A stretch of DNA of 64,000 nucleotides from Methylotenera sp. Its GTDB lineage: Bacteria > Pseudomonadota > Gammaproteobacteria > Burkholderiales > Methylophilaceae. The notes below the pieces were generated by a model that did not search any database, was not told where the DNA came from, and worked only from the letters and a program-made list of their open reading frames with translations. The stretch is taken from the NCBI GenBank assembly GCA_017880905.1, contig JADGRO010000016.1:5363-69362 (forward strand), read 5' to 3'. The stretch's first letter is position 1. The number at the start of each line of letters is the position of its first letter. Made by a program: the position numbers and the translations under genes. Below are positions 52,331-55,944 of this stretch, one piece after another.

Positions 52331-53233
52331 TTAGTTTACAGTTTTCATGTAATCAGAATTAATCGCCTTAATCGCCTCAGCAATTTTTTCCACCGCCTCA
52401 AGCCGCACAAAACTTTTACGCCAAGCAATAGCAATGCGCCTTGTGGGCGCAGGGCTTGCAAATGGAATCACCTTAATCAGCGGGTTATTGTAGCGTTCTG
52501 CCGTGGCTGAGCAAGGCAGCACGGTAATACCCAAATTTGATGCCACCATATTACGAATAGTCTCAAGTGAGTTTCCCTGCAAAATCTCGCCTTTACGCGA
52601 TAGTTCTGGGCACGCTTGCGTTACTTGGTTACTAAAACAATGGCCGCTATTCAGCAATAACACTTTTTCATCGGATAATTCTTCTGGCTTTATGTGCTTG
52701 CGATGTGCCCAATGATGATGGCTGGGCACCACCACATCAAACTCCTCGTCGTATAAGGCGCGATATTGCAAACCTGGTATATCAAACGGCAACGCGATAA
52801 TCGCCGCATCAATCACGCCATTGCGAAGTTGCGCTTCTAAATTCGCAGTTAAATTTTCTTCTACCTCCAGCGGCATATCTGGCGTGGTTTTACGCAATAT
52901 GGGGATAATTTCTGGTAATAAATAGGGCCCTACAGAATGGATCATACCCAGCTTTAATGCGCCTTTCAGCTGATTTTTACCCAGCTCGGCGAGTTGTTTA
53001 ATACGCGCTGTTTCCTCTAGCACACGCGATGCTTGCTCTACAATTTTCTCGCCAATTTCCGTCATGGTGACATCAGTGCGACTACGCTCAAAAATAATAA
53101 TATTGAGCTCTTGTTCCAACTTTTTAATGGCCAAACTCAAGGCCGGTTGCGTCACAAAACATTTTTCTGCCGCGCGCCTAAAGTTGCGCTCTTGCGCTAC
53201 GGCTACAATAAATTTTAATTCCGTAAGACTCAT
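52331..53233 (-). CDS. oxyR: LysR-type H2O2 sensor OxyR
   Basis: LysR HTH (TQPALS), GHCFSNQVTQAC redox-cysteine pair; divergent from catalase. Confidence 0.92.
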   Translation of the reverse strand: MSLTELKFIVAVAQERNFRRAAEKCFVTQPALSLAIKKLEQELNIIIFERSRTDVTMTEIGEKIVEQASRVLEETARIKQLAELGKNQLKGALKLGMIHSVGPYLLPEIIPILRKTTPDMPLEVEENLTANLEAQLRNGVIDAAIIALPFDIPGLQYRALYDEEFDVVVPSHHHWAHRKHIKPEELSDEKVLLLNSGHCFSNQVTQACPELSRKGEILQGNSLETIRNMVASNLGITVLPCSATAERYNNPLIKVIPFASPAPTRRIAIAWRKSFVRLEAVEKIAEAIKAINSDYMKTVN

Positions 53234-53270
53234 ATTTATTAATAATTAATTAAGTTTTGCTTATCATACA

Positions 53271-53291
53271 TTGATAAATTAAATTTATCAA
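53271..53291. promoter_or_regulatory. Palindrome in the oxyR-katA spacer, probable OxyR site
   Basis: TTGATAAAT-TAA-ATTTATCAA perfect inverted repeat flanked by ATAC/CTAT-like tetramers. Confidence 0.6.
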
Positions 53292-53337
53292 CTATATCAA
53301 AACATACAATTATACAAATCAATTAGTGCTCTTTACA

Positions 53338-53359
53338 ATGTTTGACATGCATCAAACAT
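53338..53359. promoter_or_regulatory. Second inverted repeat upstream of katA
   Basis: ATGTTTGA-CATGCA-TCAAACAT. Confidence 0.45.
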
Positions 53360-53381
53360 GATGACTGTTGAGGAGAGCAAT

Positions 53382-53432
53382 ATGTTGAAAACTATTTTGA
53401 AACAATGTGTTACACATTTAGCCAAGTGCTAG
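53382..53432 (+). CDS. Candidate 16-aa leader peptide MLKTILKQCVTHLAKC
   Basis: GAGGAG SD shortly before ATG 53382; TAG at 53430; no homology evidence. Confidence 0.35.
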   Translation: MLKTILKQCVTHLAKC

Positions 53433-53491
53433 TTGAACTACTAGCTAACTACGCTGCAAGCAATTAACTTTTATATATTTTTACAGGAAAA

Positions 53492-54940
53492 ATGATGATG
53501 AGTAACAAAAAAAGATTAACCACTGCCGCTGGCGCACCTGTGCCGGATAACCAAAACACCATGACTGCAGGGCCTCGTGGGCCAGCATTGTTGCAAGATG
53601 TTTGGTTGTTAGAAAAACTTGCCCACTTTGACCGCGAAGTGATTCCTGAGCGCCGCATGCACGCCAAAGGTTCCGGCGCTTATGGCACGTTTACCATAAC
53701 GCACGACATTACCCAATACACGCGCGCTAAAATATTCTCACAAATTGGCAAAAAAACTGAATTGTTCGCACGTTTTACTACAGTTGCAGGTGAGCGCGGT
53801 GCCGCCGATGCCGAGCGCGATATTCGCGGCTTTGCGTTGAAGTTTTATACCGAAGAAGGCAACTGGGATTTAGTGGGTAACAATACGCCTGTGTTCTTCT
53901 TGCGCGATCCGCTTAAATTCCCCGATTTAAAACACGCTGTGAAACGCGACCCCAAAACCAACATGCGTAGCGCCGAGAACAACTGGGATTTCTGGACATC
54001 ATTGCGTGAAGCCTTGCACCAAGTCACCATTGTAATGAGCGAACGAGGCTTACCCGCCACTTACCGCCACATGCATGGCTTTGGTAGCCACACCTTTAGC
54101 TTTATTAATGCTAAAAATGAACGCTTTTGGGTTAAATTCCACTTCCGTTCACAACAAGGCATTAAAAATCTAACTGACGCAGAGGCCCAAGAGATTGTAG
54201 GTAAAGACCGTGAAAGCCATCAACGCGACCTTTACGAATCAATTGAAAATCGTGACTTTCCAAAATGGATACTTTTCGTACAAATCATGCCAGAAAAAGA
54301 TGCGGGTTCTTACCACTTAAACCCGTTCGATTTAACCAAAGTGTGGCCACATGGCGATTACCCTTTGATTGAAGTGGGCGTAATGGAGCTTAACCGTAAC
54401 CCGGAAAACTTTTTTGCCGAAGTAGAGCAATCCGCTTTTAACCCTGCGGCGGTAGTACCTGGCATCAGCTTTTCACCAGATAAGATGCTGCAGGCGCGTT
54501 TGTTCTCTTACGGTGATGCTCAGCGTTACAGATTAGGCGTTAATCATCACCAGATACCCGTAAATGCGCCTAAATGCCCTTTCTACAGCTATCACCGTGA
54601 CGGTGCAATGCGCATAGATGGCAACCAGGGTGCTACGATTGGCTACGAGCCAAACAGCAAAGGCGAGTGGCAAGAACAGCCAGACTTTTCAGAGCCACCA
54701 TTAGCCGTTGAAGGCATGGCAGATCACTGGAATCACCGCGTAGATGAAGATTATTTTTCACAACCGGGTAATTTGTTCCGCTTGATGACGCCAGCGCAAC
54801 AACAAGTGTTGTTTGAAAATACCGCACGTTCTGTTGGCGGCGCGTCTGTGGAGATTCAAAAACGCCACATTGCCAACTGCTCTAAGGCAGACCCAGCTTA
54901 CGGCACAGGTATTGCCAAAGCATTAGGTTTAAAAGTTTAA
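53492..54940 (+). CDS. katA: Monofunctional heme catalase
   Basis: [35 protein letters not shown]. Confidence 0.96.
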
Positions 54941-54955
54941 ATACTTACCCCTCTT

Positions 54956-54979
54956 AGCCCGCGCAAGCGGGCTTTTTTT
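54956..54979 (+). terminator. Terminator after katA
   Basis: AGCCCGC-GCAA-GCGGGCT plus TTTTTT. Confidence 0.9.
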
Positions 54980-55054
54980 CTGTAAAATTTTGCACATGCT
55001 TGCGACAAAACAAAGTGTTTATCACTTAAAATAACCCTTTATAAAAGGATTAGC

Positions 55055-55219
55055 ATGAAAACTTGGGTATGCGTTGTATGCGGTTTTATTTACGAGGAAG
55101 AAAAAGGCTGTCCAGAAGACGGCATCCCTGCTGGCACCGCGTGGGAGGATGTACCTGCGGATTGGAAATGCCCGGAATGTGGTGCAAGTAAAGCAGAATT
55201 TGAAATGGTGGAGTTTTAA
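55055..55219 (+). CDS. Rubredoxin (not in the ORF track)
   Basis: [13 protein letters not shown]...[21 protein letters not shown], two CxxCG motifs; AAGGA SD. Confidence 0.95.
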
Positions 55220-55264
55220 AAGCAGGTGCCCTGCAAAGCAATATCCATGCAGATTATAGAGATA

Positions 55265-55944
55265 TTAATTCTTCGGTAGTTGGCACGCGTGCGCAAATGA
55301 ACGACCTAAAACTGTTGGATTGACCCTACCAAAGCTCTCACCTCCGCCCCATGTCGTGCCTATGCGTATGCACCCAAGCCGCGCAAGATTGCCTAAAGCT
55401 AGAACGATGTCCCCGACGGTTCGAGAAGATCCATTTCTTTCTCTTCCTTGATCCGCACAGAACGAGGCAAATCAACGGTAACTATGCCTGCATGCTGACT
55501 CTGCTCAAAAGGCAAAGCATAAAGTACATCCAAAATTTGTGCTTCTAGTGGCGTAAGTTGCTCCAATATATCAAGATAAGAGCGGCGAATTTCCGTATCA
55601 AAACTAGCGTTCGCTGCATTTACCATCAGCATCGCCCATCTATCCTGAAGGCCATCATCATCTTCAAGTGTTGCCCCTTGAAGCAACGGAACCATAAGTT
55701 TCAATGGTATCGGCTTCGTTGGACTGGAAAGGCCAGATTGCTTTAGAAGTTCCTCCGCACGCAACATCAAACGCAGTTGACGCTCCCAACGCGCATACCG
55801 TAAATGATCCTCAAAAATTCCAATACCTTGTTCAAGTGGCCCAGAAACAAAGCGGGCAATAAATCCGCCTGCTTCTCGAGCGGCATCGATTGCCTTGCCC
55901 GCAGTTTTAGCAACCTCTTGAACAGCTTTTGATTCTTCTTCCAT
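55265..55944 (-). pseudogene. Abi-alpha (DUF4393-like) protein with a -1 frameshift at the G4 run 55411-55414
   Basis: P.KL..PLL.GA.LE.D..LQ..WA.L..NA pattern; adding one G extends to DIVLALGNLARLGCIRIGTTWGGGESF...ACQLPKN*. Confidence 0.7.

Follow-up and report, generated by a model that had tools for sequence, protein, structure and literature searches.

A small open reading frame conserved between oxyR and heme peroxidase genes in Methylophilaceae, apparently frameshifted in one Methylotenera genome: a candidate leader peptide

Results

Gene layout and control region

The window, that is, the whole stretch of 64,000 nucleotides of Methylotenera sp. DNA analysed here, contains a gene for a small-subunit monofunctional catalase (katA) that lies divergent from a gene for an oxyR-type LysR regulator (Table 1). 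The top NCBIfam match of the regulator was OxyR (E 2.3e-72), with a score of 243.8 bits that falls under the curated cut-off of 329 bits, and Cys199 and Cys208 were both found in the protein. The katA orthologues in relatives were 88–95% identical to katA. Three consecutive ATG codons open katA (53492–53500), and the true start is probably the second or the third of them (53495 or 53498) because of the spacing from the AGGA ribosome-binding site and the N-termini of the orthologues.

Table 1. Features of the oxyR–katA locus in the window (positions are those of the window)
Feature	Position	Strand	Remarks
oxyR-type LysR regulator gene	52331..53233	-	divergent from the sORF-katA unit
Intergenic region	53234-53491		258 nt; minus-strand LysR-type gene to plus-strand catalase gene
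LysR/OxyR-type dyad, putative OxyR binding site	53261..53291		perfect inverted repeat 53271-53291
Conserved 24-nt block	53296..53319		>=90% conserved; putative overlapping divergent promoter elements
Predicted -10 hexamer TACAAT of the sORF-katA promoter	53334..53339	+	promoter scan
Palindrome 8-N6-8	53338..53359		perfect 8+8 with 6-nt spacer; starts inside the -10, spans the predicted transcription start
5'-proximal leader stem-loop	53350..53363	+	5 bp, 4-nt loop; overlaps the right arm of the palindrome
Shine-Dalgarno sequence GAGGAG of the small ORF	53370..53375	+	from the sequence
Conserved sORF frame, open	53372..53467	+	C-terminal block 53423-53464, stop TAA 53465-53467
16-codon ORF of the sequence-only reading	53382..53432	+	ATG 53382, stop TAG 53430-53432
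T4 run, frameshift site	53395..53398	+	relatives have five T's, Ile-Phe-Glu-Thr codons
Lineage-specific 12-nt in-frame insertion	~53405..53416	+	placement approximate; net 11-column gap in 7/7 relatives
Spacer, sORF stop to katA	53468..53491	+	24 nt; katA RBS AGGA 53485-53488
katA, small-subunit monofunctional catalase	53492..54940	+	catalase HMM E 7.7e-146

In the conservation profile, the columns of the LysR/OxyR-type dyad were conserved in 37 relatives, and we infer that OxyR binds there. The 24-nt block that follows the dyad was conserved through Methylotenera and Methylophilus and seems to hold the –35 element of the sORF/kat promoter on the plus strand together with a perfect –10 element of oxyR on the minus strand. 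The promoter scan gave a plus-strand –35/–10 pair at 53311–53339 and, on the minus strand, a pair whose –10 at 53309–14 is perfect, which suggests tightly overlapping divergent promoters of oxyR and sORF/kat. In addition, the –10 pattern TA.AAT was kept in relatives. An earlier sequence-only reading of this DNA had suggested that the small peptide before katA could belong to the OxyR regulon; the promoter of the sORF-katA unit does have its control region in common with the divergent OxyR-type regulator. Downstream of the promoter, the 5′-proximal stem-loop of the leader may serve as a 5′ stabiliser. Its folding signal was weak (z = –1.76 in the window and a mean z of –0.33 in relatives), and an equivalent 5′ stem with changed base pairs, some of them compensating, was present in approximately 20 of the leaders of 37 relatives. 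No terminator-like sites were found by the site scan in the sORF–katA spacer or the intergenic region, and an Rfam scan of 52800–55400 returned sub-threshold noise only.

The palindrome around the predicted transcription start had been called operator-like, and it could be a species-specific working operator of a dimeric regulator: a perfect 8+8 dyad directly after a –10 hexamer is in the classic position of a repressor site, and by our own reading it matches the FNR/CRP-type TTGAT-N4-ATCAA at 9 of 10 positions. However, the dyad was not conserved at the orthologous promoters of 37 relatives; its left arm was only 12–31% conserved among them and was absent in the nearest relative (L155), and its right arm is accounted for by the conserved 5′ leader stem. 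Furthermore, when the 258-nt intergenic region was shuffled 2000 times with its dinucleotides preserved, 13.5% of the shuffles contained a perfect 8+8 inverted repeat whose arms were at most 10 nt apart. We consider an operator quite unlikely here and regard the palindrome as a lineage-specific coincidence.

The small ORF in the window

The features listed in the sequence-only reading are all present, namely the palindrome, the GAGGAG, the 16-codon ORF, the Shine-Dalgarno (SD) sequence of katA, and the TAG of the ORF, which precedes the first ATG of katA by 59 nt. The 16-codon ORF consists of the true start and the first six or so codons of a conserved small ORF (sORF), followed by out-of-frame sequence. 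Past the T-run, the conserved reading continues in the –1 frame, in which a Y-F-E-T motif of the window is followed first by four extra residues and next by the C-terminal block of the family. The distance from the ATG to the end of the conserved stop is 86 nt, which is no multiple of three. When the window was aligned with seven relatives using MAFFT, the stretch from its ATG to the conserved block proved to be 11 bases longer than theirs, and this excess is made up of two events, the 12-nt insertion and the loss of one base from the T-run. The base missing from the T-run puts the SD-led ATG in a different frame from the conserved block, and the sORF is not intact in this window. We also considered programmed frameshifting at the T-run and rejected it; by our own reading, the sequence has no X-XXY-YYZ heptamer there. 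With the 12-nt insertion comes an in-frame internal ATG (53405) that lacks an SD, and if the frameshift is real, a 20-codon product could possibly be made from it.

A hidden Markov model of the family (24 positions, built from the family alignment) had a single match in the whole genome to which the window belongs, at 53372–53467 (E 1.8e-8, model positions 4–24). The nearest relative found, metagenome contig L155 with a promoter region approximately 95% identical by eye, has an intact sORF of 24 codons that is free of cysteines, lacks the 12-nt insertion and whose last 13 residues are those of the window.

These results bear directly on the 16-residue peptide as it was first read, with a C-x6-C motif and, as a leader or small protein of this organism, a proposed response to redox state or heme. 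If the frameshift is real, this strain may in fact produce such a peptide, and its ORF does have a strong SD. Its residues 7–16, however, are the out-of-frame sequence of a conserved gene and are encoded by no relative, and no Cys column is conserved among the 35 aligned members of the family. One Cys of the peptide, like the Cys of the in-frame version, comes from the 12-nt insertion. The cysteines derive from a frameshifted reading and a lineage-specific insertion; a redox or heme function based on them is not supported, and this reading of the peptide is very improbable. What stood of the proposal of a translated small peptide before katA is the SD, the ATG, the frame and an excess of synonymous changes, which are all conserved or seen in relatives; the peptide as read beyond approximately six codons did not stand, and the copy in the window is not in frame.

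The missing base could reflect a real mutation or an assembly error. When 209 kb of the closest species-level genome (G022) was compared with the whole assembly, a frameshift-like junction was found in 1 of 96 conserved ORFs of this genome, and the reverse comparison gave none in 94; the assembly is therefore not riddled with indels. The sole junction among the 96 ORFs lies at approximately 6510–6560 of contig C29 of the genome. The small number of indels in the assembly, which leaves a small prior for an error at this T-run, and the repeated natural decay of the sORF described below together favour a real mutation, and the sORF was likely inactivated by one in this genome. The location of the site in a homopolymer counts against this, and an assembly indel is the alternative, to which we give a minor share of the probability. 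For a second assembly of the species, an exact 22-mer search of metagenome contigs gave no matches, and the best match in an OxyR-based metagenome scan was 94% identical.

The sORF family

To describe the family, we compared the region behind the start of the divergent oxyR in genomes of the same genus and in additional loci from genomes and metagenomes. A first catalogue contained 38 copies of the sORF, and a later unified scan gave 46 distinct loci, 15 before a monofunctional catalase gene and 31 before katG. In all, the sORF is carried by at least 46 genomes of the Methylotenera/Methylophilus type. In these relatives the sORF has 23–28 codons, rarely 33–38, and an AGGAG-type ribosome-binding site of its own; an AGGAG-like SD was present in at least 34 of the 38 copies, and the start codon was ATG in 36 and GTG in two. 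The consensus of the family alignment (35 members) is M-x5-E-x3-Q-x-LIELLAxYAA-x-x, in which one Ala is invariant and one Leu and a second Ala are nearly so. In 34 of 38 copies the stop codon follows the Tyr/Phe at a distance of exactly four residues; Phe takes the place of Tyr in 5 of 34. Insertions and other length variation are confined to the region N-terminal to the conserved block. A moderately conserved F-E-T motif is found near the N-terminus in Methylotenera. The members have a net charge of approximately –2 and a hydrophobic moment of 0.6–1.2. Conservation forms a contiguous block, and its periodicity along a helical face was not significant (p = 0.26). No conserved His, Cys or Met able to bind heme or metal was found in the family.

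Several lines of evidence indicate that this frame is translated. Among 34 aligned copies, column entropy was 1.07, 0.88 and 1.58 bits at codon positions 1, 2 and 3, respectively. The invariant Ala is encoded by all four of its codons, and the codons at the nearly invariant Leu number seven in total. The synonymous share of differing codon pairs was 36–38% in frame, compared to approximately 6% in the shifted sense frames and 6–25% in the antisense frames. Moreover, none of the 34 copies had a stop in the sORF frame, and each of the other five frames was interrupted in 22–25 of them. Antisense coding was rejected, every antisense frame being closed in 23–25 of the 34 species. Judged by these codon patterns, the sORF is conserved and selected as a protein, with selection concentrated in the C-terminal block, and it is very probably a real, translated and conserved small gene.

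It is extremely improbable that promoter DNA, an antisense gene or an RNA element underlies the conservation instead. In some copies a hairpin folds over the Leu-Ala … Ala-Ala codons, which would speak for an RNA element, but its variable third positions pair at 0.35–0.59, near random, and the hairpin is thus a by-product of GCN codons. The leaders as a whole were not more stable than shuffled sequences (mean z +0.09, n = 36 leaders) and had no Rfam match, and the sense frame was the one open in all species while the five others were closed in most.

Two further observations concern short reading frames and tails near the sORF. Between the sORF stop and katG, a second ORF of 21 codons with its own SD was found in L034, L035 and L044 (the same places as L121, L114 and L120, respectively). 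Its stop overlaps codons 2–3 of the KatG gene of the second lineage, and it occurs in these three species only, two loci with the same KatG type (L131 and L132) being without it. The tmRNA tag of the organism (10 residues; its gene lies on a contig outside the window) resembles the sORF family (in the window, 53450–53467) in having Tyr-Ala, three more residues and then the stop, and some sORF members read Tyr-Ala-Leu near the C-terminus; the two to three residues in common are probably due to chance.

Distribution and link to the peroxidase gene

The sORF occurred once per genome and always in the same place, with a divergent oxyR on one side and a gene for catalase or KatG on the other, and the 30 best HMM matches were all flanked by oxyR and by a catalase or KatG gene. 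Among 301 sampled Methylophilaceae genomes, 67 matched the HMM at E ≤ 1e-3, and no genome had a second match better than E ~0.05. As a specificity control, approximately 391 genomes from other families of the same order were searched, and none matched at E ≤ 0.01. As far as searched, the sORF thus forms a new family restricted to Methylophilaceae. By BLAST, the two catalase lineages that follow the sORF are approximately 50% identical to each other and the two KatG lineages approximately 60%. The spacer between the sORF and the peroxidase gene ranges from 15 to 129 nt and in some loci is only 15–35 nt, and the peroxidase genes have strong SDs of their own.

The sORF is tied to a heme peroxidase gene behind it, whatever the type of this gene. 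It was absent from loci in which oxyR faces a rubredoxin gene (L016, L047 and L054). Loss of the kat gene went with an altered sORF in L009, in which loss of the stop gives 38 codons, and with a decayed one in L048. It was also decayed in three lineages that retain katG (L011, L019 and L043), and so the sORF is not essential. In L009 (G023 contig 1), no catalase gene lies behind the 38-codon variant, and a rubredoxin gene follows approximately 400 nt on; in a large protein collection, the 38-residue form carries the name hypothetical protein and belongs to a cluster of five sequences that are nearly identical (≥ 90% identity).

No match to the sORF was found in Pfam, NCBIfam, Rfam or PDB. At E ≤ 10, Pfam and NCBIfam gave no leader-peptide or other family save one irrelevant match of 13 bits, and the HMM found nothing among PDB sequences. 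Mimicry of a larger protein was rejected, since the HMM at the same threshold found nothing in PDB and nothing else in the genome. Three members were present in the large protein collection, unnamed or as "hypothetical protein". Full-text searching of the literature found no report of such an ORF, and the sequence-only reading knew of none either.

Discussion

Taken together, our results lead us to suggest, tentatively, that the window has a disrupted version of a small gene which is family-wide and previously undescribed, and that the peptide of this gene acts in cis on the synthesis of the peroxidase encoded behind it. The sequence-only reading was right in kind, in that it saw a translated leader ORF in an OxyR–catalase unit, and wrong on the cysteines and the palindrome; to this extent it is partly supported.

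The proposed mechanism is as follows. The promoter region in common with the divergent oxyR would drive a transcript whose first cistron is the sORF with its strong ribosome-binding site, and a heme peroxidase gene of one of the two catalase or two KatG lineages would follow after the spacer, with a ribosome-binding site of its own. With a ribosome at the sORF stop codon, the conserved block would fill the upper exit tunnel and slow release, and the paused or terminating ribosome would either stabilise the leader or hand ribosomes to the peroxidase cistron. In this way the output of the downstream enzyme, of either type, would be tuned, and a ligand may be the signal. The contiguous conservation at a fixed distance from the stop, the tolerance of N-terminal insertions and the independence of the enzyme fold all point towards action on the ribosome-bound chain. 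Several observations weigh against a cis mechanism: the leaders have neither a conserved RNA structure nor a terminator and leave no space for a Rho site; known termination-arrest peptides do not typically vary in their last two residues, as the sORF peptide does; and the peroxidase genes have strong independent SDs. In particular, no readout element for a stalled ribosome (a terminator, a rut site or an SD-sequestering hairpin) and no covariation were found in the leaders.

The same observations fit a free, trans-acting micro-protein, a partly amphipathic acidic helix of approximately 24 residues made together with the peroxidase after activation by OxyR, whose partner might be OxyR itself, another stress protein or a factor shared in the maturation of heme peroxidases. 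Co-transcription of a small protein with the protein that it modulates is frequent, and the strong SD, the conserved length, the selection at the amino acid level (including the F-E-T motif in Methylotenera), the net charge and hydrophobic moment, and the lack of a conserved cis RNA element all speak for such a micro-protein; spacers of 15 nt, variable last residues and strong independent SDs are likewise compatible with it. On the other hand, the enzymes encoded downstream have two unrelated folds, catalase and KatG, which makes a direct enzyme partner unlikely, and the sORF is not kept where oxyR stays and kat is lost, which argues against OxyR as the partner. Nor does the peptide offer conserved residues for heme or metal, its Tyr being replaceable by Phe, and its conservation is contiguous rather than along one helical face. 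We therefore regard a free micro-protein as a serious possibility, though a doubtful one, and favour, still tentatively, a peptide that acts in cis as a leader. A more specific form of the cis-acting leader is that the conserved block is a nascent-chain sensor, belonging to a new family of arrest peptides, and that it pauses the ribosome at the end of the leader ORF when it senses a small molecule relevant to heme peroxidases; the signal may be, for example, heme or a redox metabolite. We consider this form rather unlikely. If it were true, catalase/KatG synthesis would be subject, beyond OxyR, to a further checkpoint at the level of translation or mRNA stability, and this would be the first description of a catalase controlled by a leader peptide.

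Induction of catalase and KatG by OxyR is a textbook circuit, and we know of no peptide-coding leader for an OxyR-controlled catalase or KatG gene. A gene of 24 codons between oxyR and four lineages of peroxidase genes is a clean and tractable candidate for studies of small proteins and leader peptides, and natural knock-outs of the sORF, possibly including this genome, are available for comparison. The locus also offers a lesson for annotation, as an ORF that looks plausible can turn out to be the beginning of a conserved gene read past a frameshift.

The sORF can be compared with several known systems. PqqA, the PQQ precursor peptide of 22–29 amino acids with an E-x3-Y motif, is common in methylotrophs, and the sORF resembles it in size, in having Glu and Tyr a few residues apart and in its methylotroph host. 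We rejected this relationship: the Glu and Tyr of the sORF are five positions apart (four residues between them) as opposed to E-x3-Y, the Tyr can be Phe, no PqqA model matched at E ≤ 10, and no pqqB–E genes are adjacent. Like oxyS and other small genes beside LysR-type regulators, the sORF is divergent from oxyR and uses a common control region; unlike oxyS, it codes for a protein rather than an sRNA, continues into a peroxidase gene and has no Rfam match. AnkB of the katB–ankB unit in P. aeruginosa and MntS in E. coli are accessory small proteins of peroxide or metal regulons. Proteins of this type are, like the sORF product, small and co-expressed or in the same regulon with a catalase, whereas the sORF has no homology to them, lies upstream rather than downstream, is far smaller and is linked to both catalases and KatG.

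Among leader ORFs, uof precedes fur in E. coli and is OxyR-controlled; it overlaps the fur start, acts by translational coupling and has little constraint on its peptide. Both uof and the sORF are short ORFs in a 5′ leader behind a promoter region with OxyR binding (inferred for the sORF). Translation of uof is linked to expression of the gene behind it, a link that for the sORF is part of our proposal. The sORF differs in that it is separated from the downstream gene by the spacer, in that this gene has its own SD and in that its peptide is selected, and the two have no sequence similarity. TnaC (24 amino acids), SpeFL and SecM are regulatory arrest or leader peptides. The sORF differs from them in its variable last two residues and in having neither a rut site nor an SD-sequestering hairpin nor a match to leader models, and stalling is in its case a proposal; it resembles them in being of similar size, in lying upstream of the gene that would be regulated, and in having a variable N-terminus and a conserved C-terminal part of approximately 12 residues whose distance from the stop is fixed.
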